DNA of 55,982 nucleotides from a virus (IMGVR_UViG_3300011442_000011:1-55982); one strand, 5' to 3'. Shown: positions 1,632 to 27,788, numbered from the stretch's first letter. Translations and numbers: made by a program. The notes: generated by a model from the letters alone, not told the origin.

Positions 1632-2789
1632 ATGAACCAAGATATTATGACGATCCATCCCGACGACGTCCTGACATTCAAAGAAATTGAAGACCATATG
1701 CGCCGCGTGGCGAAGATATATGATCTTCCGCTGCGAAACATCACGGCTTACCCGATGCCACAAACGGGCATGTCGGATCGTCTCGGTGATTGCTCGGGCA
1801 CCGGCGACATTCGTCTGGTCCTCCGTTGCACAGTTGACGGTAAGTGGTGCGATGCTCCGATGAATCCGGATACCGTCCGCACCACGGCTGCCCACGAACT
1901 CGCTCATCTGAAACACATGAACCACGGTATGGAGTTCCAGGCACTATTCAAGGAACTCGAGACCGCGATGTTTAATCAGAAAGAAAGCCATCGCGACAAG
2001 ATCATCGACAAGTTGCTGAAGCTCCAACAGGCGCGACAGGGCGAAGCTGCGCTTGGCAATCTGGAGGCAGCCCAGTCGTTCGCTGCTATGATCAACAAGA
2101 TGTTGATCGAACACGAGCTCAGCCCAACAGATCTCGACTTTGCCCGCGCTCGTGACAACGATCCGGTTGTCGAGATCGCTGTCAGCTTCACTGCCCACAA
2201 CATAAAGCTCGCAAAGTCACGCATTGCGTGGCAAGAGGAGCTCGCACAGCGGATCGCCGGCGCGCATCTCTGCAAGATCCTCATCCTCCCGGGCAGCAAT
2301 CGTCTGGTTTTCGTCGGTGTTCGTTCGCATGCGACTGTCGCCGAATACGTCTACGGCACAATGGTTCCGGCCGTCGAGAAAATGTCCAAGGCCGCAGAAG
2401 TCAAATATTGGCAGGAAACTGGCTGTGGCCGTGGTCGTGATAACAAGGCGCTTGGTTATCGTTCAGCGTGGATCGAATCTTTCAACACTCGTATCTGGGA
2501 GCGATTCGAAGAGGCTCGGCGTGCAGCGTTGAAGGATTATGCTGCCAGCAAGGGCAATTCAACGGAAACCGGTCTGATGAGACTGAACGGCGCGCTCATC
2601 AAGGCGCAGAGATACATCGACGACAAGTTCTCTGCTCGCGGTCGTGCAGCTCGTCATGCTCACGCTATCGAACACAAATACCGCAATCATCCGGAAGGAC
2701 ATGCTGCGGGGCGTGAAGCGGCCAACAACATCACTCTGGGTCGTCGCGGTCTGAACAGCCCAGCGACTCGGGGTCAACTCAAGGACTAG
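1632..2789 (+). CDS. zincin (HExxH) metallopeptidase domain + DUF2786-like domain protein
   Basis: AHELAHLKHMNHG motif; IIDKLLKL..EAAQSFAAMINKMLIEHEL resembles DUF2786. Confidence 0.7.
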   Translation: MNQDIMTIHPDDVLTFKEIEDHMRRVAKIYDLPLRNITAYPMPQTGMSDRLGDCSGTGDIRLVLRCTVDGKWCDAPMNPDTVRTTAAHELAHLKHMNHGMEFQALFKELETAMFNQKESHRDKIIDKLLKLQQARQGEAALGNLEAAQSFAAMINKMLIEHELSPTDLDFARARDNDPVVEIAVSFTAHNIKLAKSRIAWQEELAQRIAGAHLCKILILPGSNRLVFVGVRSHATVAEYVYGTMVPAVEKMSKAAEVKYWQETGCGRGRDNKALGYRSAWIESFNTRIWERFEEARRAALKDYAASKGNSTETGLMRLNGALIKAQRYIDDKFSARGRAARHAHAIEHKYRNHPEGHAAGREAANNITLGRRGLNSPATRGQLKD

Positions 2790-2799
2790 GAGTTGGACA

Positions 2800-3051
2800 A
2801 TGGCGCGGTGCAGGACGTTTCGGATCCATCCCGAAACCGGGGTGCCCGATCGTGAGATCACGGAGTTTCTCAACGAATGCGAGAAAGTATCGCTCATCAA
2901 TGTCCAAATGCATCAACTTCCGGCAGAAGGAAAGTGGGATGCACGCCTCGTGCTCATCGTGACCAAGAACGAGGAGACCATCGAAGAGTCGGGTAAGCTC
3001 CCACAATCAATTGGCAAAGTAGTCTCGACTTCGATCGCGAAGCAGAATTGA
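2800..3051 (+). CDS. hypothetical protein
   Basis: 83-aa ORF with AGGAG RBS. Confidence 0.6.
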   Translation: MARCRTFRIHPETGVPDREITEFLNECEKVSLINVQMHQLPAEGKWDARLVLIVTKNEETIEESGKLPQSIGKVVSTSIAKQN

Positions 3052-3196
3052 TTTCGTTCGTCTGACAACGGGTATGGAGGTGCGCCATGCGTTAGATATG
3101 ACTAACTAAACAATTTAATTTGGAAACGGGTCTTGTTCTGCCGGTCTTCAAAGACGGGTCACATTTGGCAGACTGAAAGACCGGCGCAGGTCTTAT

Positions 3197-3445
3197 ATGA
3201 AATCTATTACACCAGCAGTCCACAGAGACGCCATTCTTGTCACCTTTGCCAAGGACCAGCCAGAGTATAATGCTCTAGTTGGTTCTGTCGGTCCCGATGG
3301 TACGGTCATGACCGAATGGGAGTTCACCGACGAAGAGCGAAAGATTATCCTCGAAGGTGGTCGAATTCGGCTATGGCTTCTGTTTGCGATAGACGAGCGA
3401 AAAGACCGTAGGCTCACGCCAATTGCGATCGAGACAGTAAAATGA
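3197..3445 (+). CDS. hypothetical phage protein
   Basis: 82-aa ORF; FAKDQPEY..W.FTDEER.I..GG pattern seen in small phage proteins. Confidence 0.65.
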   Translation: MKSITPAVHRDAILVTFAKDQPEYNALVGSVGPDGTVMTEWEFTDEERKIILEGGRIRLWLLFAIDERKDRRLTPIAIETVK

Positions 3446-3889: not shown

Positions 3890-4216
3890 ATGAAATGCTC
3901 AGTCTGTCGTGGTGCGTGCTGCGAGGAGTTTAGTCTAGACCTCGTGATGCAACCGCCGAGCAAAGACGCTCAGCGCTGGATTGAGCTCCATGCCATAAAT
4001 ATCAAAGACGAACGTCTTCGTTTCGAGTGCCGTTGCACGGAGCTCACGCTCGAAGGTGATTGCGCAATCTGGGAAGATCGACCTATGGTGTGTGAACTAT
4101 TCATCGCTGGTGGCCCGCGATGTCTGGAAGTCGTAGGACGGCGGCGCACCACCGATCAATATCAAATGATCCGCGATAACGACGACCCACTAGTCCTCGA
4201 TGGCCAATCTGTTTGA
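3890..4216 (+). CDS. YkgJ-like cysteine cluster (CxxCxxCC) protein
   Basis: CSVCRGACC ... CRC..L...DCAIWEDRPMVC motif. Confidence 0.75.
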   Translation: MKCSVCRGACCEEFSLDLVMQPPSKDAQRWIELHAINIKDERLRFECRCTELTLEGDCAIWEDRPMVCELFIAGGPRCLEVVGRRRTTDQYQMIRDNDDPLVLDGQSV

Positions 4217-6167
4217 TTTAATCTCACCCGGCGATATAGTCGTTCCGCATGACGACTGGCGTCCGGAGTCTCCTCCATCGCTCTCTGCATTTAGTGAAAT
4301 CTTTGTTAATTTCGAGACAAATGGCCTACAATGGTGGAATGGAAATTTGCCAGTAGGCGTTGGAGTCTTTGCTGGTGATCGTTCATGGTATCTGCCATTT
4401 GGACATCAAGGTAAAGGTAATCTCGACCCTGCCGTCGTATATCGATTCTGTCAGCAAGAATTTAAAGGTAAACTGATCACTAATATCAACACTCGCTTTG
4501 ACACGCACATGGCTCGTGCGTGGGGCGAGAAGATGGGCGGGGGTGGACTAGACTTTGAGGCAATGGGTTGCCATTTGAGCGATGTTGGACATTATGTAGC
4601 ATTGCTCGATGATCATCGGATGGAGATGAATCTGGATTCAATTATTTCAGATTATCTCAAAGAAGTACCAATGAAGCGACTTGATGAAAGTCAAGGGCTC
4701 CATAGATTTTCGGCCGGGCAAGTCATGCCTCGTGCTCGTTATCAAGTGGAAATAGTGAAGCGATTGAAAGATGTTCTGTGGCCTAAGCTAACAGAGCAGG
4801 GGCTACAGCGGGTTCGCCAGCTCGAGGATGATGTAATACCAGTCGTCGTTGAAATGGAGAAGAATGGGTCACCTATTGATCTAGAGCTCCTCGATACATG
4901 GATAAAACAAGTTCATGAAGAATACTGCAAAGTGCTCATGGATTTGTATAGAGACACTGGTCTCAAGATAAACCCGAACTCTAATCCAGATCAAGCTAAG
5001 CTCTTCCAACATCTGAAGCTCCAGTTCATTGAATTCACAGATACTGGCGCACCGAGTTTTGGCGATGCAGTCATAAAAGGTATCGATCATCCAACAGTCA
5101 AGAAGCTACGACGCGCGAAGAAGCTCGCTAGTATTCATAGCAAACTCAGCAAGTATCGCCGCGTCATTGATTCAAAGGGTATCCTCCGCTACGCTCTTCA
5201 CCAACTTAGGATGACGAAAGATGAAAGGGATCATGCTGGTAGCAGTGGGACCAATACTGGTCGTTTTTCAAGCACAGAGATTGCTCCAGGCGTTGGGACT
5301 AACATCCAGCAAGTCCTCAAACCTGAAAAACAATTCCTGACATTTGGCGATGAATACTTTGTCCGTGATGTCCACATACCGGCAAGTGGCGAGTGGTTAT
5401 CTGTAGACGCAGAACAGATACAGTATCGTATCTTCGCACATGAAGCGAATTCACCACGCATAAATAAACGATATGAAGAAGATCCTTGGACCTCGTTCCA
5501 TAAGATGGTCCATAAGATGTTGCTGCCCTCTAAACCAGATCTTTCATATCGTCTTTGCAAAGATACGAACTTCGCAAAGATGTTTGCTGCTGGACCAAGT
5601 AAGATTGCGCTTATGCTTGGATTCATCACTAAAAAAGAATATGAAGAACTTCGCGCAGCAAAGGCTAATCGCAATCATCCGAAGCTCGTCAAAGTCAAAG
5701 AGATCCTCGATGTATATGCCCGAGAAATGCCGGAAGTCGATGCGGCTCTCAAGAAGGCCGAAGAGATTGCGAAGACTCGTGGTTTCGTTAGGTCAGTTAT
5801 GGGACGTCGTTCACGATTCCCTGACCAAGAACAACTCCACAAGGCTTTGAATGGTCGAATTCAGATGTCCGAAGCAGACATCATGAAAGCGAAGGCTGTC
5901 GAATTACATAGAGCTCGTAAATATACTGACTTCTTGTTACGATTTCAAGTTCACGATGAATTTGATGGAGATGCTCGAGAGCCGCACACTAAGGCACGTG
6001 TCGCGGAAGTCTTGAATGCACAATCATTTGAACTACGCATCCCGATTCTATTTGGTGTAAAGACCGGAAAGTCTTGGGGTGCGTGTGCCGCCGAAGAACT
6101 CGCAAAACTTCGACGAGAAGCCGCAGAGGCAGCGGCAGCAAATGATTCTGCTCAAGTTCCGAACTGA
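4200..6167 (+). CDS. polA: DNA polymerase, family A (proofreading domain appears degenerate)
   Basis: TGRFSS, NIQQ, motif A DAEQIQYR, motif B KDTNF, motif C QVHDE. Confidence 0.9.
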   Translation: MANLFDLISPGDIVVPHDDWRPESPPSLSAFSEIFVNFETNGLQWWNGNLPVGVGVFAGDRSWYLPFGHQGKGNLDPAVVYRFCQQEFKGKLITNINTRFDTHMARAWGEKMGGGGLDFEAMGCHLSDVGHYVALLDDHRMEMNLDSIISDYLKEVPMKRLDESQGLHRFSAGQVMPRARYQVEIVKRLKDVLWPKLTEQGLQRVRQLEDDVIPVVVEMEKNGSPIDLELLDTWIKQVHEEYCKVLMDLYRDTGLKINPNSNPDQAKLFQHLKLQFIEFTDTGAPSFGDAVIKGIDHPTVKKLRRAKKLASIHSKLSKYRRVIDSKGILRYALHQLRMTKDERDHAGSSGTNTGRFSSTEIAPGVGTNIQQVLKPEKQFLTFGDEYFVRDVHIPASGEWLSVDAEQIQYRIFAHEANSPRINKRYEEDPWTSFHKMVHKMLLPSKPDLSYRLCKDTNFAKMFAAGPSKIALMLGFITKKEYEELRAAKANRNHPKLVKVKEILDVYAREMPEVDAALKKAEEIAKTRGFVRSVMGRRSRFPDQEQLHKALNGRIQMSEADIMKAKAVELHRARKYTDFLLRFQVHDEFDGDAREPHTKARVAEVLNAQSFELRIPILFGVKTGKSWGACAAEELAKLRREAAEAAAANDSAQVPN

Positions 6168-7204: not shown

Positions 7205-7768
7205 ATGGCCCCACGGATGACCACTTTCACTGGTCGTGTAGTTAATCCTTTGGATCTGAAACCCAACGATATTGTCATCCTCGATATTGCTCATCATACG
7301 GCCACGCTAAACAGATTTCTTGGTGCGCTGAAACGACCAGTGAGCATTGCACAACATCAAGTCTACGTTTCACGTTTGTTAGATGGAACAGGCTGGGAAC
7401 GTGAAGGTTTGTTTCACGATGCGATTGAAGCGTATCTCGGCGATATGTTGAAATGGCTGAAATGTGAGCCAGAAATGAAAGCATATCGTGATGCCGAGGA
7501 GCGTGGTTGGCTCGTTGCATGTGACGCGCTAAACTTGAATCCCGACGGCTGTCCGGAACGTTGTCCTGAAGTTGAATGGGCAGATCGCTTGATGGTGCGC
7601 TACGAAGCATTCCGCGAGGCCAATAACTCCGATATGTTCGAGAGACCAAATTACCCCAAGCCGTCAGAAGACGAGATCAAGAAAGTTGGGAAGTGGGCTC
7701 CTTGGTCATGGCGCGCAGCGGAGCGAGGATTCCTCGACCATGCCCGTCTCTTAGGCTATACGGTATGA
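7205..7768 (+). CDS. HD-domain phosphohydrolase (YfbR/YfdR-like nucleotidase)
   Basis: TFTG..P.DI.I.DIAH..NRF.G..SIAQH..LFHDAIEAYLGD; AGGAGG RBS. Confidence 0.85.
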   Translation: MAPRMTTFTGRVVNPLDLKPNDIVILDIAHHTATLNRFLGALKRPVSIAQHQVYVSRLLDGTGWEREGLFHDAIEAYLGDMLKWLKCEPEMKAYRDAEERGWLVACDALNLNPDGCPERCPEVEWADRLMVRYEAFREANNSDMFERPNYPKPSEDEIKKVGKWAPWSWRAAERGFLDHARLLGYTV

Positions 7769-8316
7769 CCCTCTTAGATTCCATGCAGCATTCATTGAAT
7801 CGCGCGAAGATCGCATCAGATCGTCTGAAAAGGCAGCTCTACCTTGATATCGATGGCGTGTTCGGTGATCTGGATGGTTTCTATGAGCAGCTCTTCGGAG
7901 TTCGCCCAAACCAAGACACATACGAACCACCAGACCTCTGGACTAATATCCGCAATCACGGATTCTTCTTTCGTGACATGCCGTTGATGCCCAACGCATT
8001 CCAACTTTGGATCACAATCAAAACACAGATCCATCCAGATCCTATATTCCTGACCGGTATACCAAAACCGAATACTGGCATCACGAATGCTGCCGAGCAA
8101 AAAGCAATCTGGGTAGCTCGGAACTTCGGAGTTGATCAACAGGTCATCTGTTGTCTCTCCGAGGATAAACATTGTCACGGCAAACTCGGTGACGTATTAC
8201 TTGATGACCGTACGAAGTATGCCGGTCATTGGATCCATATAGGTGGCCTATTTGTTCACCATAGGTCAGTAGAAAGCTCCATAGTTAACCTGAAACATAT
8301 CTACAATGGCCGGTAA
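7765..8316 (+). CDS. HAD-family 5'(3')-deoxyribonucleotidase (NT5C-like)
   Basis: LYLDIDGV motif I, FLTG, K..W, LLDDR; ATGA overlap with upstream gene. Confidence 0.8.
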   Translation: MTLLDSMQHSLNRAKIASDRLKRQLYLDIDGVFGDLDGFYEQLFGVRPNQDTYEPPDLWTNIRNHGFFFRDMPLMPNAFQLWITIKTQIHPDPIFLTGIPKPNTGITNAAEQKAIWVARNFGVDQQVICCLSEDKHCHGKLGDVLLDDRTKYAGHWIHIGGLFVHHRSVESSIVNLKHIYNGR

Positions 8317-8478
8317 AGCCTGCGCGCACGATGCCGTTTTGACCCGCCTAGCGTGCCCTGTGGCGCAACCTGACCTACCGGGTAAGGGTAAGCCATACCT
8401 TATTACTGGGACGCGCCACGGGAAGTCCTGGAACTCCACCTGACATCACCATAAATTGCAGCGCGATGAAAATGTGGC

Positions 8479-8507
8479 TTGCAATCGGTTTAAAACTGTG
8501 GTATGAT
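8479..8507 (+). promoter_or_regulatory. promoter with operator-like dyad (copy 3), upstream of DNA-modification operon
   Basis: TTGCAA-tcggtttaaaactgtgg-TATGAT; 17-bp spacer. Confidence 0.8.
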
Positions 8508-8518
8508 GGGTTTCTCAA

Positions 8519-9409
8519 ATGCCAGCTAAATTCGTCTTACTTGACCATTTCTTTGCGACCGCTCGCGAACGCTATCAGATAAAGTTGAATCGGGAAGCTG
8601 GCAAACCGTGGCCCTGGACAACGGACACACATTTTCAAAACTGGCGCTTTTGTCAAGTTCATCGTGAAGATGACAAGACAACAGTGTGGTTCCGGGAAAC
8701 GATCCGCAAAGGCATCCTCGAACGATTTCCATCGTCTGGCAATTATAAACTTTTGAAGCTATTAGAGTCTACGCTCATTTTCCGCTGGTTCAATCGTATC
8801 GAAACTGGCGAAGCAATCAAAGATCTGCTCATCTACGATTGGGATACACAGGAAGCCCGTTCGCGGCTGACTGGTGTCAGTCCTGTGGTAACAGGCGCCT
8901 ACATTATCAAAGCTGGTGATGGTGTCAGCAAGCTAGAAGGGATTCTGGCCTGCATCGACGAGGCACGGCCACAGCTACCACGGATGCTTGCAGACTGGAT
9001 GGTTGAGCCACCCGAACATCGATCTCTTCGAGTTGCATGGGAAAGTATTCGCGAGCTCCATTTCATGGGCGGCTTCATGGCGTACGAAGCTGTCAGTGAT
9101 CTTCGTTGGACACCGATCCTTGATCAAGCACAAGACATAATGACGTGGGCAAACGCTGGCCCCGGATGCGCTCGAGGACTGGGTTGGGTCGTCTACAACG
9201 ATTCCGATGTTTTCTCCTGTTCAGTAGGACACCAGCGCAAGATGCTGGAATACATGCAGGAGCTCCTCGAACATAGCAAGAATCCGAATTATTGGCCTGC
9301 TGAATGGAAACAATGGGAGATGCGGGAAGTTGAGCACTGGAATTGTGAATTCGACAAATACATGCGCGCCTACGGTGGCTCGCGGCTCAAACGGCGATTT
9401 CAAGTGTAA
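8519..9409 (+). CDS. alpha-glutamyl/putrescinyl-thymine pyrophosphorylase clade 1 family (thymidine hypermodification protein)
   Basis: ER..I...R..G.P.PWT.D...WRFCQVHREDD, FRWFN, GGFMAYE...DL, AGPG..RGL, EH.NCEFDKY. Confidence 0.8.
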   Translation: MPAKFVLLDHFFATARERYQIKLNREAGKPWPWTTDTHFQNWRFCQVHREDDKTTVWFRETIRKGILERFPSSGNYKLLKLLESTLIFRWFNRIETGEAIKDLLIYDWDTQEARSRLTGVSPVVTGAYIIKAGDGVSKLEGILACIDEARPQLPRMLADWMVEPPEHRSLRVAWESIRELHFMGGFMAYEAVSDLRWTPILDQAQDIMTWANAGPGCARGLGWVVYNDSDVFSCSVGHQRKMLEYMQELLEHSKNPNYWPAEWKQWEMREVEHWNCEFDKYMRAYGGSRLKRRFQV

Positions 9410-9415
9410 AGAAAT

Positions 9416-9616
9416 ATGCTACGGATTAGATTATTCATAGAAGTAGACGTAGATCTTCACGAATTCAGAGATAAATCGGTTTTAGAAATCTCTGAAGTTG
9501 TAAAGAAAGACGCCATCAAACAAATTAATGATATTGGCTATACTGGTCGCGTCAAAGGCTTGTATATTCCGAATATGGATAACATAAGACAAGCAGTATT
9601 ACAAACTGAATTATGA
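9416..9616 (+). CDS. hypothetical protein
   Basis: 66-aa AT-rich ORF in operon; ATGA overlap with next gene. Confidence 0.55.
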   Translation: MLRIRLFIEVDVDLHEFRDKSVLEISEVVKKDAIKQINDIGYTGRVKGLYIPNMDNIRQAVLQTEL

Positions 9617-10371
9617 AGATCATCGTCCCATCAATTGGTAGAGCCGGTAAGTGCAATTCGATGAAATGGCTCCCGGAAGCCAATCGTCCGATTGTATTTG
9701 CTGTGCATAGTGATGAAGTCGAAGCATACCGGGCTGCATATCCTGGTTGCTCTATCATGCATCTCTCAGATAGCTGCCGTAAGCACACTGGCCTCGTCCG
9801 CAAAGAAATCATGGAGAGCGTTCGGGAGCCTTTCATCTTTGTCGATGATGACATTCGTGTAAGCCTCAAGGCTGTTAACAGTGTCGAGAAGATGATCGAG
9901 CAAATCGAGGAGCATGTCGGTCTCGGCGGCTTCTCGATGGCAGGGCTCGCACCGCAGCTCTTCTCGAATTACGCTGTAGACAAAGTTGAAACAATCGGTC
10001 ACGATTTCTTCGCGATTCGTAACAAGTTCGTGGCAACCGTCTATGGGATCAATCCCACCCACTTCGACGACTGTCCACTTGAAGTATTGCCAGTCTATGA
10101 AGACATTGCTCTCGTTATCCATGCAATAGAACGAGGTAATGGGACGATTGTCACTTACTGCGCAACGCACAGCAATGTCAGCCCATCGGTTGGCGGCTGC
10201 AACTCGTGGCGCAATGAACAGATCACGATCGACTGCCTGATGAAATTAGTGAATCTGTATCCGCACGTTTGTTCGATTCGGGAAACAAAGAATACGACTC
10301 ACAGCCAGAACATCGGTATCGGATTGAGGGTTGCGTGGTCGAAGATAAAGAAGCTCGAATTGCCGAGCTAG
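9613..10371 (+). CDS. GT-A fold glycosyltransferase (JGT/TET-associated GT-like) 1
   Basis: MKIIVPSIGR, FVDDD, YED, GGC motifs. Confidence 0.75.
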   Translation: MKIIVPSIGRAGKCNSMKWLPEANRPIVFAVHSDEVEAYRAAYPGCSIMHLSDSCRKHTGLVRKEIMESVREPFIFVDDDIRVSLKAVNSVEKMIEQIEEHVGLGGFSMAGLAPQLFSNYAVDKVETIGHDFFAIRNKFVATVYGINPTHFDDCPLEVLPVYEDIALVIHAIERGNGTIVTYCATHSNVSPSVGGCNSWRNEQITIDCLMKLVNLYPHVCSIRETKNTTHSQNIGIGLRVAWSKIKKLELPS

Positions 10372-10529
10372 AGCGTGGTCGACGCAATCATCTCGAAGCA
10401 TTGCGACGAGATATCGACTACGCGCTAGAACGCCCGTTCTATATTGGATTTGCAAATGCGAATTCCAATACCTATATGCGAATTGCGGAAGCTGAGGCAC
10501 AACTCAGGTTATTGAAACACGGACAATGA
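10335..10529 (+). CDS. small hypothetical protein
   Basis: GTG with GAGGG RBS; ATGA overlap with GT2 start. Confidence 0.45.
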   Translation: MVEDKEARIAELERGRRNHLEALRRDIDYALERPFYIGFANANSNTYMRIAEAEAQLRLLKHGQ

Positions 10530-11302
10530 GGATCATCATCCCGACTAAAGGCCGCATCTCTCGACAGACTACTCTGGAGAACTTGCCGAAGGCTCTGCAC
10601 GAGCAGGTTACGATTGTCTGTCCTCCAAAAGAAGCGGTCTTCCATCGGAATAACTTCCCAGCCTGTGAAGTGAGCGAGCAGCCCGACCCAGAAATGGGGA
10701 TTGCGGCGAAACGTCACTGGATAATCGAAACCGCACAGTCAGAAAAATTGGTGATGCTCGATGATGATCTTCGGTTCGCGGTTCGACGCCAAGATGATCC
10801 CGCACGTTTCCGAAAAGCTGAGGGAGAAGATATTATCCGAGCATTCGTCGAGCTAGACGCCGTCCTCTCTGAAGAAGTTCCTCATGCTGGATTCTCAGCT
10901 CGCGGCGGTGGAATCAGCGAGAAGGCGCAAGCAGGTGGATGGCAACTCGGTAAGAGGATGATGTATGTCCTCGGCTACCATGTTCCTACACTACGGAAAC
11001 ACGCAGAGTTCGGGCGAATTGGCACGCATGAAGACATGGATGTTTGTCTTCAGCTCCTAACAAAAGGATTTCCAAACAGCGTGAATTTTTCGTTCGTTGT
11101 CGACCAAGCCTTCGGGAATCCTGGTGGCTGCACGAACGAACGCACTGTCGAAAAGAACAATACTGATGTCATGAAGCTCGCGTCGTTCTTCCCAGCCTAT
11201 GTCCGAGTGACCCAGAAAGACTATGCAGGTTCAGTCCCTCGAATGGAAGTTGTCGTACAGTGGAAACGGGCAATGGAAGATGGACTTCGTAACAGGCAAT
11301 AG
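10526..11302 (+). CDS. GT-A fold glycosyltransferase (JGT/TET-associated GT-like) 2
   Basis: MRIIIPTKGR, MLDDDL, HEDMD..LQLL..G, PGGC motifs; paralog of 9613 gene. Confidence 0.8.
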   Translation: MRIIIPTKGRISRQTTLENLPKALHEQVTIVCPPKEAVFHRNNFPACEVSEQPDPEMGIAAKRHWIIETAQSEKLVMLDDDLRFAVRRQDDPARFRKAEGEDIIRAFVELDAVLSEEVPHAGFSARGGGISEKAQAGGWQLGKRMMYVLGYHVPTLRKHAEFGRIGTHEDMDVCLQLLTKGFPNSVNFSFVVDQAFGNPGGCTNERTVEKNNTDVMKLASFFPAYVRVTQKDYAGSVPRMEVVVQWKRAMEDGLRNRQ

Positions 11303-11966
11303 CGGTTCGCTTCTGCTGCCAGCAGTTTTCAAAACCGGGCCGGAGTGCCTTCAGGAAGGCGCTTACTGCGAGGTACTCGGTAAAGATGTCACGCCACGTA
11401 TCCTCTGTCTAACGACGGATGGCTACGTGATGGAGAAGCTCGAGAAGGCGGCGCGTCATCCCGATCTTCTGTGCCAAATTACAGAGTTACTAAAGAAGCG
11501 TGTTTGGTCTCGGCCATCGCAAGATTACGATGTTGCTGGTAAAAGCTATAAGGATCATCACAAGGAGCTCGGTCTTGAAGTTCCGGACTGGGCAGTGCCG
11601 ACTTCTTTCTGCATGACACATGGTGATCCAACCGCTTCAAACACACTACTCCGTAACGGCCAACTTATCCTCTGTGATCCACGTCCGCCTAGAGCCTACG
11701 TGCCACAATGCCGGGAAAGCGATATGGCACGAATCATGCAATCTTATTTTGGATGGGAAGTTGCTGCATACGGAGAGCCGATTATTCGTTATAAATTTCC
11801 AGATTTTTGGCTGAATCCTAGTATCCGGCATAAGGTCTCTTTCTGGTTGGCAGCAACAACACTTCGAATCGAGAAATTTGAGTTCTCCAAACCGAAACGA
11901 CGTGAATCCGTCGTTTCATGGTGTCGGGAGGTAAGGATTAAGTGTCTAAACGAATGTGGGCTATAA
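11280..11966 (+). CDS. APH/choline-kinase-like phosphotransferase
   Basis: GNSG loop, YVMEKL, HGDPTASN catalytic motif, ILCDPR, ESDMARIMQS. Confidence 0.75.
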   Translation: MDFVTGNSGSLLLPAVFKTGPECLQEGAYCEVLGKDVTPRILCLTTDGYVMEKLEKAARHPDLLCQITELLKKRVWSRPSQDYDVAGKSYKDHHKELGLEVPDWAVPTSFCMTHGDPTASNTLLRNGQLILCDPRPPRAYVPQCRESDMARIMQSYFGWEVAAYGEPIIRYKFPDFWLNPSIRHKVSFWLAATTLRIEKFEFSKPKRRESVVSWCREVRIKCLNECGL

Positions 11967-12637
11967 TTCCAGCAGCCGGACAATCTCAGCGATTTGCCGA
12001 TGTCGGCTATTCGACTATTAAGCCATTACTAAAAGTCCAAGACAGAAATGGACTAACGCTATCAATGCTGGCCCATGTTCGAGGAACTCTGCCCGTAGAG
12101 GACCCATATGTCCTGACGGCACTGCCAGCCGGTGTCGAAAGACCTGAAGACTACAAGGGTACGAAAACTATAGTCATAGAGACCATCGGACAAGCTGATA
12201 CGATTCGACAAGCGATTATTGGTCTCCCAGCTAACGATGCTGTCCTAATCGCTGATTGTGACATGGTCCTAGATCCAATCGATATTTTCAAGATGATCAC
12301 ACATTCGCAAATTGCGGAAGTAGTCGTAGCAGTTACACAGACATTCGACCCCAATGCCTCTCGAGTTGACCAAATCCCATTCCCAACGCGCTTCGTCGAG
12401 AAAGAACCGATTTCTCAATGGGGGATCGTTGGAATTCGCATCTTCAATTCAGTTCGGAAGCTCGAGATTGCGCTGGACATAGCAATCAGCCGAGCAATCC
12501 GTCATAGTCAAGAGCCGTATCTGTCGATGGCCATGAATGATTATCCTGGGCCGAAATATGCGCATGTCATCACAAATTTCCAGGACTGGGGAACTCCGGA
12601 GAGATTGGTGAACAGTGGCGCCAAAATCTTGGACTAA
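11954..12637 (+). CDS. sugar-phosphate nucleotidyltransferase (NTP_transferase family)
   Basis: IIPAAGQSQRF..KPLL, GQADT, IADCD, FVEKEPIS, DWGTPE. Confidence 0.85.
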   Translation: MWAIIPAAGQSQRFADVGYSTIKPLLKVQDRNGLTLSMLAHVRGTLPVEDPYVLTALPAGVERPEDYKGTKTIVIETIGQADTIRQAIIGLPANDAVLIADCDMVLDPIDIFKMITHSQIAEVVVAVTQTFDPNASRVDQIPFPTRFVEKEPISQWGIVGIRIFNSVRKLEIALDIAISRAIRHSQEPYLSMAMNDYPGPKYAHVITNFQDWGTPERLVNSGAKILD

Positions 12638-12755
12638 GTGGTTTACAACCTGTAAGCTCTGCGGAGATCCGGGCATTTGTGTCTGCTTCTCTTGTCTTCG
12701 AGCTATGCTCATTTCAGCACTAATGGTGCGATTACTTGATTGGATTTTCAAATGA
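12615..12755 (+). CDS. small Cys-rich protein (46 aa; not in ORF track)
   Basis: GTG-start ORF MAPKSWTKWFTTCKLCGDPGICVCFSCLRAMLISALMVRLLDWIFK; TGA overlaps TS start (ATGA). Confidence 0.4.
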   Translation: MAPKSWTKWFTTCKLCGDPGICVCFSCLRAMLISALMVRLLDWIFK

Positions 12756-13828
12756 AAACTCTCTTTGTGCAGAACGTCCACGAAGCTCTGCCATTCGCGC
12801 TCCGCTATCTGCACTACGAGGGCTACAATCGCGATAGTCGTAACGGCCCAGTCCGCATCTCACCAGTTCCAGTCACAACGATCTACAACAAACCGTGGCA
12901 GCGAGTCCTATTCTGGTCGCAGCGCGACGCTAACCCATTCTTCCATCTCTACGAATCGCTGTGGATGCTAGCTGGTCGTGACGATCTTGCTGGCGTCGTC
13001 AAATATGCCAAGAACATGGCGAGCTATTCTGACGATGGCCATACATTCCATGGTGCATACGGAGCTCGTTGGCGCAATTGGTTTGATTTACAACATCCAA
13101 CGGCACCTTATGATCAATTGAGAGCGATCGCTGATCGCTTACGGAAAGATCCAAATGATCGTCGTTGCATTCTACAAATGTGGGATGCTGAGACTGACTT
13201 GGATAATCCAGGCAAAGATGTTCCGTGCAATACGACCGCCACATTTCAGCGTGATCAAATCGGTAGGCTGGATTTAATAATCTTCTGCCGGTCTAACGAT
13301 ATCATCTGGGGAGCCTACGGCGCGAATGCCGTCCATTTTTCCATGCTTCTCGAATACATGGCTCTGAAAATTGGCTGTCCGATGGGACGGATGTATCAGG
13401 TGAGTGTGAACTGGCACGCCTATCTCGAAACGCTGAAGCAATGTGAACCGATCCGTAATTTGATCGATCGTGGCGATTACATTGGTAGCTACTATGATGC
13501 ATTCAAAGAACGTGTGCATCATACACCAATGGAAAATCCAGAAGAGATCGATATACACATCGCACAGATTTTGACATTAGCAGATAACGATCTATTGCAT
13601 ACCGGTTATCATATTTTTCCAAAGGGATCTTGGCCTCATGAAGTTTCGGTCTGTTTGGAAGCACACGAATATCATCGGATGAAAAGATACGGGGATGCAG
13701 ACAGGGTTCTAACTCTCGGGAGCGTAGATAACGATTGGAACCGCGCTTGTCGAGAGTGGTTGCAGCGTCGTCGCGAAAAACGAGAAGAGCCAAAGAAGCC
13801 GGAGAGCGTCGGTGGAACTTCGGTTTAA
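12752..13828 (+). CDS. thymidylate synthase-family enzyme, probable dUMP hydroxymethylase
   Basis: SRNG, RDANPFFH..E.LWMLAGR, AYG.RWR, DVPCN, RSND..WGAYGANAVHFS, NWHAY. Confidence 0.85.
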   Translation: MKTLFVQNVHEALPFALRYLHYEGYNRDSRNGPVRISPVPVTTIYNKPWQRVLFWSQRDANPFFHLYESLWMLAGRDDLAGVVKYAKNMASYSDDGHTFHGAYGARWRNWFDLQHPTAPYDQLRAIADRLRKDPNDRRCILQMWDAETDLDNPGKDVPCNTTATFQRDQIGRLDLIIFCRSNDIIWGAYGANAVHFSMLLEYMALKIGCPMGRMYQVSVNWHAYLETLKQCEPIRNLIDRGDYIGSYYDAFKERVHHTPMENPEEIDIHIAQILTLADNDLLHTGYHIFPKGSWPHEVSVCLEAHEYHRMKRYGDADRVLTLGSVDNDWNRACREWLQRRREKREEPKKPESVGGTSV

Positions 13829-14354
13829 GTCTCACTTCTACGAGCTCATGGAGCGAGGTTGTCTTGGCAACACGCTCAGGAACTGGCGAACAATCCAAGA
13901 CGCTTGGGACGCAGAGAGTCCATACTATGGATTTCGGGAAATTGGGATTGCGGGAGGGGGACTTCATTCAGTTGTGCCTCGAAGCGATCTCTTCGCAAAA
14001 TTCAACGATTGGTCGCATGCTGGTCGACGATTCATCATGGATGAAGCCGCCCCAGATACCGATGTTCAATTACAAGGTGAAATTTGTCAAGGAATCTTTG
14101 GCTGGGAAGGATACCTCGGAATTCGAACAGGTCTTCGTATGCGACCTGCAATGGCAGCAGGTTGTATGCGACCCTACAGAGGACTATCAACTAGAACCAT
14201 TGTTCGTAGCTTCTGTTGCGAAAACAGTTTCGGAGATATTGAATGTCTCTTTGATCTTTACCCAGACGCCACGATTGAGTTCGCAACATACCCATACGAT
14301 CTTGGAAAGATACCACGGCGGAATACTCTCATCTGGGAGCTGAGGAATTACTGA
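13812..14354 (+). CDS. hypothetical protein
   Basis: 180-aa ORF overlapping TS end, GGAG upstream; more protein-like than the overlapping 13735 frame. Confidence 0.65.
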   Translation: MELRFKSHFYELMERGCLGNTLRNWRTIQDAWDAESPYYGFREIGIAGGGLHSVVPRSDLFAKFNDWSHAGRRFIMDEAAPDTDVQLQGEICQGIFGWEGYLGIRTGLRMRPAMAAGCMRPYRGLSTRTIVRSFCCENSFGDIECLFDLYPDATIEFATYPYDLGKIPRRNTLIWELRNY

Positions 14355-26583: not shown

Positions 26584-26934
26584 ATGAAATATGCAAACCT
26601 TTTCACACGTCGTGGGGCGCTAGGTGATAAGGCGCTCTTGCATCTTAGCAAGATCTACGAGACAAGAAGAGAGGCGGAGCACTACAGCGACGTTATACCC
26701 GATGCAGGCTGGGAATTCGTTACGACACTAGAGATTCGTAACACATTATCGGAACAACGTCAAGATGCAATCTACGCATTATTCACAGACCGAGACAAAA
26801 GATGGCCAGTCTGCATCTGCGGTGAAATTGCGCAGCAGCATCCGTTGAACAATCGTGACAAATGCAGACAGTATCGGCCTAGTAAGCCACTCACTCCATT
26901 GCAACAGGCGCTTACAGACGAACGAGGTCAGTAA
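26584..26934 (+). CDS. hypothetical protein (likely leaderless)
   Basis: ATG begins 7 nt after -10 hexamer; C.CG..H..C motif; TAATG overlap with ligase. Confidence 0.6.
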   Translation: MKYANLFTRRGALGDKALLHLSKIYETRREAEHYSDVIPDAGWEFVTTLEIRNTLSEQRQDAIYALFTDRDKRWPVCICGEIAQQHPLNNRDKCRQYRPSKPLTPLQQALTDERGQ

Positions 26935-27788
26935 TGTTCTTTCCACTGATGATGGCCCGGCCTCTGAAGTCCGATTTCATTCTTGAGCCGGATCAATGGG
27001 CGGCTGAAGAGAAGTTTGACGGGATCCGCATTCTTGCGCATGTCGAGGGAAAATCCGACGACCTCTTCATGGATAAGAAGGTCACTCCGTGGTCCCGCTA
27101 TGGCATCATTCATCCACTACCGACCCACATCCTCGAAGTGCTCGCAAAGTTACCAGATGGTTGGTACGACGGTGAGATATTCGTACCCGGTAAACGTTCC
27201 TACGGCACAACGGAAATCAAGAACCAATCCGAAATGATTTTCGTGATCTTCGACATACCACACCCGCCTTCCTTTGCACAGCCTGATTTAAGCTACGATC
27301 TTCGACGTCTAGGATTATTACATCTTGCAGAGAAATACGGGCTTTACAATTCAGTCTGTATCGCGGCCTCCACACAAGTTAATACCTGGGACGAAATCTA
27401 CGCACTTCGAGATGCAGTCTGGGCGCGCGATGGTGAGGGATTGATTCTCAAGCAGCGCGATTCAATCTATCAGATTGGGAAGCGGCCGAAGACGTGGCTC
27501 AAGATCAAAAAACTTCAGCATGCGACGCTAACAGTGACCGGATTTGTAGCCACGAAAGGTCTGATCATTGATCGTGGGCCTTGTGCGATTGTTCTGCTGC
27601 GTGATGACGAAGGAAACGAAACCGCGGTGAAGACCAAGAATGACGCAGAGTGTCTTCGCCTTGCGAAGCTGCATAGCCAGACACAAGTTCACCCTGAAGT
27701 GGGCCGTCGGCTGTGTATCGAATATCAGGAACGAACGCCGGACGGTAACTACCGGCATCCGCGATGGGATCGATGGGAGGATGAATAA
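26934..27788 (+). CDS. ATP-dependent DNA ligase
   Basis: EEKFDGIR, YDGEI, IFDI, EGLILK, WLKIK, OB-fold YRHPRW. Confidence 0.92.
   Translation: MFFPLMMARPLKSDFILEPDQWAAEEKFDGIRILAHVEGKSDDLFMDKKVTPWSRYGIIHPLPTHILEVLAKLPDGWYDGEIFVPGKRSYGTTEIKNQSEMIFVIFDIPHPPSFAQPDLSYDLRRLGLLHLAEKYGLYNSVCIAASTQVNTWDEIYALRDAVWARDGEGLILKQRDSIYQIGKRPKTWLKIKKLQHATLTVTGFVATKGLIIDRGPCAIVLLRDDEGNETAVKTKNDAECLRLAKLHSQTQVHPEVGRRLCIEYQERTPDGNYRHPRWDRWEDE

Follow-up and report, generated by a model that had tools for sequence, protein, structure and literature searches.

Phages M6, PaMx11 and ViI use a P-loop kinase to phosphorylate the 5-hydroxymethyldeoxyuridine (5hmdU) of their DNA, after which a clade-2 transferase exchanges the phosphate for an amino acid (PMC8989533). 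The module analyzed here, at positions 7205-13828 (+ strand) of a whole IMG/VR virus record (IMGVR_UViG_3300011442_000011; 55,982 bases, linear, the entire stretch being referred to as the window), encodes an HD phosphatase, a HAD nucleotidase, a PF18723 protein, two glycosyltransferases (GT1 and GT2), an APH-fold kinase, a nucleotidyltransferase and a homolog of thymidylate synthase (TS), and probably makes 5hmdU and decorates it with sugar. It resembles M6, PaMx11, ViI and PhiW-14 in its predicted TS-type dUMP hydroxymethylase (44% identity), its PF18723 protein (46% identical to PaMx11 gp50), a nearby HD phosphatase and a location next to polA. However, those phages need a P-loop 5-hmdU DNA kinase and a PF18724 protein and attach amino acids, whereas the window has glycosyltransferases in their place.

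Sugar-bearing DNA is known from phages T2 and T6, which contain glucosyl- and gentiobiosyl-5-hydroxymethylcytosine (5hmC). As predicted for the window, a TS-family hydroxymethylase acts there before replication and DNA glycosyltransferases add a first and a second sugar, the second transferase of the T6 type being a TAGT-family enzyme about 24% identical to GT2; unlike the window, T2 and T6 use dCMP as substrate (Asp177 in the hydroxymethylase), draw on host UDP-glucose without phage sugar-activation genes, and have no PF18723 protein. In the Afh pathway of RB69, DLP3 and HY126, a TS homolog makes the acceptor, a phage APH-fold kinase and a nucleoside-diphosphate-sugar (NDP-sugar) pyrophosphorylase make the donor, and several DNA glycosyltransferases build mono- to tri-saccharides (PMC13326640). 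The kinase and nucleotidyltransferase are fused there in a single protein, AfhE, which together with the HAD phosphatase AfhF converts arabinose 5-phosphate to UDP-arabinofuranose for DNA arabinosylation (PMC13326640). Besides AfhE and AfhF, that pathway has an arabinose-5-phosphate isomerase, a TS homolog with Asn169 and Asp177, and GT-B-like glycosyltransferases, whereas the window has separate kinase and nucleotidyltransferase genes, no SIS isomerase, a nucleotidase-type HAD protein and GT-A glycosyltransferases.

The product predicted for the window, a sugar on the hydroxymethyl oxygen of 5-hydroxymethyluracil (5hmU) in DNA, is similar to base J of kinetoplastids, and phage GT-A enzymes structurally resemble the base J glucosyltransferase JGT (bioRxiv 2023.12.21.572611). 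In base J, however, thymine is oxidized within DNA by a Tet/JBP dioxygenase, which has no match here; the window would instead make 5hmdU at the nucleotide level, possibly add a second sugar, and supply a phage-made donor. Glycosylated thymidine derivatives, TS homologs, and glycosyltransferase and nucleotide-sugar genes are also described for SP-15, YerA41 and Carin-5, which differ in being far larger, unrelated phages of 145-222 kb with a phosphate-containing base described by analogy to SP-15 (PMC12686479). Our searches found no close similarity to these three phages.

The sequence-only reading of this locus had not recognized the gene combination, yet its core set (TS, aGPT-Pplase1, nucleotidase and glucosyltransferase) is already in print for HTVC023P-type pelagiphages, in the form of TS, aG/PT-PPlase1, 5'-deoxynucleotidase and beta-glucosyl-HMC-alpha-glucosyltransferase (PMC9599517). 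That text contains no word starting with "nucleotidyl", a search that did not extend to "kinase". PhiJL001, a phage of Alphaproteobacteria, likewise has PF18723, glycosyltransferase and TS genes close together near polA (gp19, 42% identical to the window PF18723 protein; gp22, a TAGT-type enzyme 29% identical to GT2; gp24, 43% identical to the TS homolog), but unlike the window it lacks a second glycosyltransferase, an APH-fold kinase and a nucleotidyltransferase in BLAST and jackhmmer searches. Between its glycosyltransferase and TS genes, at the position that the kinase and nucleotidyltransferase genes occupy in the window, lies gp23 (L001:7836-8435), an Nmad5 protein (PF18757, E 2e-16). This phage was reportedly sequenced in 2004. 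A metavirome survey describes many GT-A contigs beside ThyS genes and lists "APH phosphotransferase" among the neighbors (bioRxiv 2023.12.21.572611). In the literature examined, we found no chemically identified glycosyl-5hmdU for a phage with this gene set.

A conserved gene module

The window has an estimated completeness of 72%. Early and replication genes occupy the + strand to about 28 kb, and structural genes follow on the - strand. All eight gene calls of the sequence-only reading were borne out by Pfam, PHROGs, fold prediction and profile searches; its description of the genes as contiguous does not hold throughout, as the series is interrupted by intergenic stretches of 202 nt (8317-8518), 154 nt (10372-10525) and about 115 nt (12638-12751). 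Megablast with the region as query gave no match in 50,697 phage records, leaving the window without a near-identical deposited relative. Scans of viral contigs with a single kinase or GT2 sequence found no relatives either, but scans with a kinase alignment did, and the same alignment gave 12 loci when applied to metagenome contigs.

The full order polA, orf137, orf108, HD, HAD, PF18723, GT1, GT2, kinase and nucleotidyltransferase is repeated in contigs L024, L027 and L028 at 44-66% protein identity, and continues in L027 and L028 with TS, orf180 and an exonuclease; L025 and L029 contain partial copies of the block. Among the longer metagenome contigs, the module is conserved in at least five independent ones. 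GT2 lies immediately upstream of the kinase in every metagenome locus having upstream sequence (11/11), and the nucleotidyltransferase immediately downstream in eight of the nine having downstream sequence. Because gene order is conserved across contigs, the module is not a chance assembly. More distantly, L015 and L018, which belong to complete viral contigs of about 77 kb (G001 and G002) and are about 30% identical to the window, keep the PF18723 protein, one GT2-type glycosyltransferase, the kinase, the nucleotidyltransferase and the TS homolog.

No PF18723 gene was found in the 1 kb preceding GT1 in L025, where the contig begins. This AT-rich stretch (L025:1-1050) occupies the place of PF18723 in the sister contigs and appears by eye homing-endonuclease-like, with repeated AP2-like motifs, and the contig seems to begin inside this gene.

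A predicted dUMP hydroxymethylase without an amino-acid branch

The TS homolog (open reading frame [ORF] 12740-13828, likely start ATG 12752, + strand) matches phrog_5131 at E 6e-104, and was the sole match in the NCBIfam scan, under every cut-off. Its closest phage homologs, 44% identical, come from the 5hmdU-based M6-like and PaMx11-like phages. In ThyA numbering, Asn at position 177 indicates dUMP and Asp indicates dCMP as the substrate, Leu at position 143 indicates methylation and an acidic residue hydroxymethylation, and Asn at position 169 marks the synthases of 5-hydroxy-dCMP (5hodCMP) (PMC13326640). We therefore read these positions from a MAFFT alignment of the window protein with E. 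coli ThyA, a T4-like dCMP hydroxymethylase, RB69 gp48, PaMx11 gp51, PhiJL001 gp24 and the proteins of seven related loci. Asp143, Cys146, Asp169 and Asn177 are found together in the window, in all seven related loci, in PaMx11 gp51 and in PhiJL001 gp24. Cys146 is the catalytic residue of E. coli ThyA, and Asp143 is found in the T4-like dCMP hydroxymethylase as well, whereas E. coli ThyA has Leu. Asn177 is confirmed by HMMER alignments to bacterial TS and to the CMP hydroxymethylase MilA, which has Asp there, and with Asp169 and Asn177 the protein fails the signature of 5hodCMP synthases, as whose representative RB69 gp48 has Asn169.

Judged by these residues, the TS homolog is most likely a dUMP hydroxymethylase with 5hmdUMP as its product. 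Since this pattern is combined with the lack of a Tet/JBP dioxygenase (no match to Tet_JBP, PF12851, in the window), we predict that the hydroxymethyl group is installed at the nucleotide stage, ahead of replication.

The amino-acid branch that follows in M6-like phages, consisting of the P-loop 5-hmdU DNA kinase and the clade-2 transferase, is absent from this roughly 72% complete window. Searched with the PF18724, PF18748 and AAA_33 models, the window, G001 and G002 showed no kinase-like or transferase-like match, while the positive control, PaMx11, was detected (PF18724 finds gp46 at E 3e-29). PaMx11 gp49 and gp46 used as protein queries had no counterpart in the window, in the L015 and L018 contigs or in PhiJL001. 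Similarly, phmmer and a Walker A scan of the 402 stop-to-stop frames of at least 60 amino acids in the window revealed no 5-hmdU DNA kinase, the sole Walker A motif being that of a UvrD-type helicase. PF18723 is thus present here without the P-loop kinase that is its companion in M6, PaMx11 and SP10.

Two TAGT-family glycosyltransferases

Both glycosyltransferases belong to the TAGT family of GT-A enzymes, a family that, like aGPT-Pplase, is said to have been defined by Iyer et al. in 2013. GT1 (9613-10371, + strand) matches phrog_842 and scores 32.2 bits against PF20691 (cut-off 27.5) over residues 1-82 only; GT2 (10526-11302, + strand) reaches 71.7 bits (E 1e-19) against the same model and E 1e-43 against phrog_842. 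They are distant paralogs (20% identity, E 2e-9) that share a DDD motif, in the form of MLDDD in 10 of 10 GT2 sequences and VDDD at the aligned place in GT1. A PDB search with the single GT2 sequence gave nothing meaningful. The two differ in distribution: GT1 is found in the window's own lineage only, where it is better conserved than any other module protein (66% identity in L024, L025, L027 and L028), and is absent from loci with a single glycosyltransferase, whereas a GT2-type enzyme is present in every such relative (L015, L018, L032, PhiJL001 and MW202897).

Precedents exist for a division of labor between such enzymes. In T6-like phages it is a TAGT that attaches the second glucose (PMC13390438), and metavirome GT-A enzymes glycosylate 5hmC, with pairs of them building di- or trisaccharides at fixed glycan positions (bioRxiv 2023.12.21.572611). 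Because of these precedents, the family membership and the distribution of the paralogs, we propose that GT2 adds the base-proximal sugar, moving it from an NDP-sugar to the 5-hydroxymethyl oxygen to give a base-J-like 5-(glycosyloxymethyl)uracil, and that GT1, the lineage-specific paralog, would add a second sugar. A complex prediction for GT2 and the kinase with PF18723 as partner gave a score of 0.00 (mark 0.32), which carries no weight for or against binding.

A putative phage-encoded sugar donor pathway

The kinase gene (ORF 11223-11966, 247 amino acids; probable start ATG 11280, giving 228 amino acids; + strand) has no family match in Pfam, PHROGs or NCBIfam, and was assigned to the APH/choline-kinase fold of small-molecule kinases by structure prediction and Foldseek. 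The AF2 model of the 228-residue core has a pLDDT of 93, and in the PDB Foldseek matches it best (E from 1e-4) to choline kinase, fructosamine-3-kinase, maltokinase and APH. We found 21 homologs at 45-100% identity, and the motifs HGDPTxSN and DPRPPR are invariant in the 20 that were aligned. A tblastn search against phages gave no match, and single-sequence and profile searches of the PDB gave nothing meaningful. A profile comparison with RB69 gp52 nevertheless showed HGDPxxSN...DPR to be common to both (hhalign probability 64%, E 7e-5, 29 columns).

Overlapping the end of the kinase gene is a separate gene for a putative sugar-1-phosphate nucleotidyltransferase (11942-12637, + strand), and the two are adjacent and overlapping in nearly every locus. 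Its NTP_transf_3 match (E 1.9e-5) is just under the cut-off, but a 13-member profile retrieves 52 PDB matches in the NDP-sugar pyrophosphorylase superfamily, the best being 4evw (E 1e-10), followed by GlmU; the profile also reaches IspD-type cytidylyltransferases, at E 4e-5 and weaker. In phages, the sole tblastn match was Synechococcus phage Bellamy (one genome, present in two records; 24% identity), while a single-sequence PDB search gave nothing meaningful and BLASTP against RB69 gp53 gave no match. The Atlas structural neighbors are NTP_transferase proteins that include viral HAD-NTP_transferase fusions, and the kinase structurally matches an Atlas cluster of viral 616-residue proteins, 92% of which carry NTP_transferase and 11% APH. 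Viral DHBP_synthase fusions (229 members) and a bacterial cluster of RuBisCO-large-chain fusions (82 members) are also among the neighbors of the nucleotidyltransferase.

A HAD gene separates the kinase from the nucleotidyltransferase in L006, L015 and L016. The gene adjacency, the viral kinase/NTP_transferase fusions, this trio with HAD, and the AfhE precedent with its common motif lead us to regard the kinase and nucleotidyltransferase as most likely a split analog of AfhE, which would synthesize the NDP-sugar donor through a sugar 1-phosphate intermediate.

The trios of L006 (9004-11002) and L016 (8701-10725) have TS and polA upstream and no detectable TAGT. In L006 they are flanked by ORFs of 412 (7769-9007) and 335 amino acids (10995-12002) that have no Pfam match and could be unrecognized transferases. 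Between the TAGT gene and the kinase of L015 is a 222-residue ORF (L015:8321-8989) with a weak N-terminal match to Sulfotransfer_3 (E 1e-5, sub-cut-off), which hints that some relatives modify the sugar further.

The PF18723 protein

PF18723 (HMUDK_hel) was formerly called aGPT-Pplase clade 1, and a homolog is still labeled [quoted passage not shown] in one source. The window protein (8519-9409, + strand) matches profile positions 4-274 of 281 at E 3e-33 (115.7 bits, cut-off 25), and the family comprises 2,699 proteins at E <=1e-5 among 3,143 candidates. It is an ortholog of PaMx11 gp50 (46% identity), whose gene lies between the P-loop kinase and TS, and by position it corresponds also to M6 gp55. 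In SP10 gp186 the domain is fused to a P-loop kinase (PMC5889632 Table 3), which explains the current Pfam name. The sequence-only reading had taken the aGPT-Pplase families to act in thymidine hypermodification; this is established for just one of them, clade 2, the amino-acid:DNA transferases, and the clade-1 member of M6, gp55, is dispensable in the lysate reconstitution that yields the gp54/gp51 product (PMC8989533).

A single-sequence PDB search with the protein gave nothing meaningful, and its AF2 model (pLDDT 94.8) was compared with known structures. The top matches in VIA are PaMx11 gp46 (8z2m; Z 10.2 over 216 residues, rmsd 4.2) and QNG1, a glycosylase of queuine salvage, and all of the top 23 rows (Z 6.1-10.2) are helix-hairpin-helix glycosylases (Z 6-9.3), QNG1 or gp46; for an all-helical protein such Z values are moderate evidence only. 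Foldseek returned MjOgg with a probability of 0.99 but an E of 0.08. As modeled, then, the protein has a helix-hairpin-helix DNA-glycosylase-like fold. In the gp46-DNA structure, Glu243 and Thr244 bind the metal that sits on thymine O4, and the base itself is clamped by Cys247. An hhalign alignment with a probability of just 0.3% places the invariant EVEHWxC of PF18723 on the EVETILC of gp46, and Phe186 and Glu190 on its glycine-binding Trp146 and Lys150. On this basis PF18723 is a probable binder of flipped-out, 5-substituted uracil within DNA, and its second substrate, if any, would differ from that of gp46.

The L018 contig encodes two PF18723 paralogs (2247-3209 and 7336-8172). One copy, the window-type ortholog, is found near the TS gene, together with a dCTP-deaminase/dUTPase-like gene and a Pyr_excise-like gene; the other, divergent copy is directly upstream of the glycosyltransferase, kinase and nucleotidyltransferase genes.

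HD and HAD nucleotidases

The module opens with an HD-type deoxynucleoside 5'-monophosphate phosphatase (7205-7768, + strand), which has no Pfam match but matches phrog_318 ("deoxyribonucleoside 5' monophosphate phosphatase", E 8e-30), contains the motif FHDAIEAYLGD and is 48-59% identical in L024, L027 and L028. Its stop codon overlaps, as ATGA, the likely start (ATG 7765) of a HAD 5'(3')-deoxyribonucleotidase of the NT5C type (ORF 7693-8316, + strand; phrog_2643, E 1e-25). A profile of four lineage members matches 11 PDB sequences (best E 3.6e-9), namely ten 5'(3')-deoxyribonucleotidases and one designed protein. We considered this HAD protein as an AfhF-like sugar phosphatase and rejected it, as its natural-protein matches in the PDB are deoxyribonucleotidases and it has no likeness to RB69 gp51.

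Proposed pathway

It is reasonably probable that the module makes 5hmdU before replication and glycosylates it on DNA with a donor produced by the kinase and the nucleotidyltransferase. In this scheme the TS homolog would convert dUMP to 5-hydroxymethyl-dUMP, the HD and HAD phosphatases, to judge from their families, would clear away dTMP or dUMP as competitors, 5hmdU would enter DNA through host kinases and the family A polymerase of the phage, and GT2 and GT1 would act on it in turn. The sequence-only reading had likewise proposed that 5hmdU, once incorporated, receives one or two units, sugar or polyol-phosphate, from a donor made by the phage; with sugars as the units, the TS residues, the TAGT family and the AfhE parallel now favor this, though it stays at the level of inference. 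A further-reaching version is possible, although on balance we doubt it: the lineage may make an undescribed hypermodified thymidine, a 5-(glycosyloxymethyl)-deoxyuridine carrying a rare phage-made sugar and a second sugar, with PF18723 as a kinase-independent base-flipping enzyme required for the glycosylation.

Several observations weigh against the proposed scheme. Among 14 distant viral loci with a kinase homolog (kinases about 30% identical) that were examined by profile search, TAGT, nucleotidyltransferase and PF18723 occur together in just two (L015 and L018), and eight show the kinase alone in the retrieved sequence; L006, L012, L016 and L017 have TS and polA a few kb upstream of the kinase and no detectable TAGT. 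The arrangement in L018 argues against a glycosylation-specific role of PF18723 and for a main role tied to 5hmdU DNA in general. The acceptors of TAGT-type enzymes in the literature examined are 5hmC or glucosyl-5hmC, none being 5hmU. On the donor side, the window lineage is without the HAD gene that L006, L015 and L016 have between kinase and nucleotidyltransferase, and the HAD protein that it does encode is of the deoxyribonucleotidase type and unrelated to RB69 gp51; the arabinose-5-phosphate isomerase model (SIS, PF01380) has no match in the window, with 14 of 14 control genomes positive; and the kinase, whose best structural matches are choline kinases, may act on a non-sugar substrate. 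Pfam scans of 40 ORFs of the window did not turn up a dCMP deaminase, a dUTPase or a dNMP kinase. Finally, the contig is about 72% complete and a 73,475-base contig carries an identical kinase, so that genes of the module could be missing.

Alternative readings

The APH-fold kinase, as the only kinase here, might itself be a new 5hmdU DNA kinase that replaces the P-loop enzyme (5-HMUDK), in which case PF18723 would displace the phosphate with a nucleophile as clade 2 does, and the glycosyltransferases would decorate the product. We consider this unlikely. It would suit a domain that is fused to a P-loop kinase in SP10 gp186 (PMC5889632) and adjoins one in PaMx11, that matches the gp46 structure at Z 10.2, and whose EVEHWxC aligns, if weakly (0.3% again), with EVETILC; however, the same weak alignment replaces the glycine-binding Trp146/Lys150 of gp46 with Phe186/Glu190. 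Moreover, the kinase adjoins the nucleotidyltransferase (8/9 loci), and in L006, L015 and L016 a HAD gene too; viral fusions of the two enzymes exist, AfhE acts on sugar phosphates, and PhiJL001 has PF18723, a glycosyltransferase and TS without any such kinase.

The structural matches of the kinase, led by choline and ethanolamine kinases, raise a different doubt, which concerns the donor. If the kinase and nucleotidyltransferase worked as LicA and LicC do, the donor would be a CDP-alcohol (CDP-choline, CDP-ethanolamine or a CDP-polyol) and the decoration would contain a phospho-alcohol, as might also be expected from the IspD-type matches of the nucleotidyltransferase (E 4e-5 and weaker) and from the phosphate in the hypermodified thymidines of SP-15, YerA41 and Carin-5 (PMC12686479). 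This is quite improbable in our view: the best matches of the nucleotidyltransferase are NDP-sugar pyrophosphorylases and GlmU, the module has no transferases besides its DXD-motif GT-A enzymes, whose donors are NDP-sugars, and a LicD- or CDP-alcohol-type phosphotransferase appeared in none of the Pfam scans of the window. Where the sequence-only reading had allowed for "sugar or polyol-phosphate", the nucleotidyltransferase profile, leading to NDP-sugar pyrophosphorylases and GlmU, favors the sugar and makes polyol-phosphate the less likely choice.

The glycosyltransferases, kinase and nucleotidyltransferase could also be directed at non-DNA targets, for instance glycans on the host surface or proteins of the virion, leaving the DNA with at most plain 5hmdU. 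In the metavirome survey about 65% of glycosyltransferase-containing viral contigs have no nearby base-modification gene, and TarP and lipopolysaccharide transferases are among the structural relatives (bioRxiv 2023.12.21.572611). Here, however, the glycosyltransferase genes lie between PF18723 and TS, within a block of replication and nucleotide metabolism, a linkage kept across lineages at 30-66% protein identity, and both enzymes are TAGT, the tested members of which act on DNA; we give this possibility little credence.

A base derived from cytosine, either glycosyl-5hmC as in T-even phages or glycosyl-5-hydroxycytosine as in RB69, seems very improbable. In its favor, the CMP hydroxymethylase MilA (E 6e-17) is the PDB sequence that the TS homolog matches best, and it is in cytosine pathways that TAGT and AfhE-like enzymes are characterized. 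Against it, the window has Asn177 where MilA and T4-type enzymes have Asp and Asp169 where 5hodCMP synthases have Asn, its closest phage TS homologs (44%) come from 5hmdU-based M6-like and PaMx11-like phages, and PF18723 travels with 5hmdU systems.

Neighboring features

The conserved syntenic block opens with the family A DNA polymerase gene polA (4200-6167, + strand; PF00476, E 6.7e-28), which is syntenic in L024, L027 and L028 at 51-59% identity. At the other end, directly after TS, orf180 (13812-14354, + strand) encodes a conserved 180-residue protein without a family match, which is kept in the same place in L025, L027, L028 and L029 at 39-45% identity and may be part of the pathway. Between PF18723 and GT1 is an ORF of 66 amino acids (9416-9616, + strand) of doubtful standing, with no family match and no homolog in any of the related loci.

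The sequence-only reading had given the PF18723 gene its own promoter. What is found in the 202-nt gap before this gene is a consensus match, TTGCAA-17-TATGAT with TG (8479-8507, + strand), and the region has eight such sites against 10.5 expected from shuffled sequence. If the site were real, its -10 element would end 11 nt before the PF18723 ATG (window 8479-8521), and the mRNA would be leaderless or nearly so, without a Shine-Dalgarno sequence.

Elsewhere in the window, positions 1632-2789 encode a 385-residue protein with matches to YgjP-like/WLM metallopeptidases (E 5e-6 and 5e-5) and to DUF7168 (E 4e-11), and an ATP-dependent DNA ligase (26934-27788; PF01068, E 1e-13) closes the + strand block.

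Implications

What is new here is a conserved seven-enzyme module with two glycosyltransferases and a split AfhE-like donor pathway, evidence against a kinase and amino-acid branch, and a residue-level case for dUMP as the substrate. The module is predicted to carry out a hydroxymethylpyrimidine DNA glycosylation, on uracil, with its own donor synthesis and a PF18723 partner. In the literature examined, phage DNA glycosylation has been worked out for cytosine derivatives, and the well-understood thymine routes attach amino acids; this module unites the part of the M6/PaMx11 systems that makes 5hmdU with the part of the cytosine systems that makes the donor and adds the sugar. Phage DNA that is hypermodified withstands restriction enzymes and CRISPR nucleases, and the enzymes that make it can become tools for labeling or sequencing modified bases. 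Being compact (about 6.6 kb) and without the kinase/amino-acid transferase step, the module would offer a clean system in which to study glycosylated 5hmdU, the activated sugar and the role of PF18723. If the further-reaching version, with PF18723 as a base-flipping enzyme required for glycosylation, were true, it would at last provide a function for aGPT-Pplase clade 1, a family with thousands of members.

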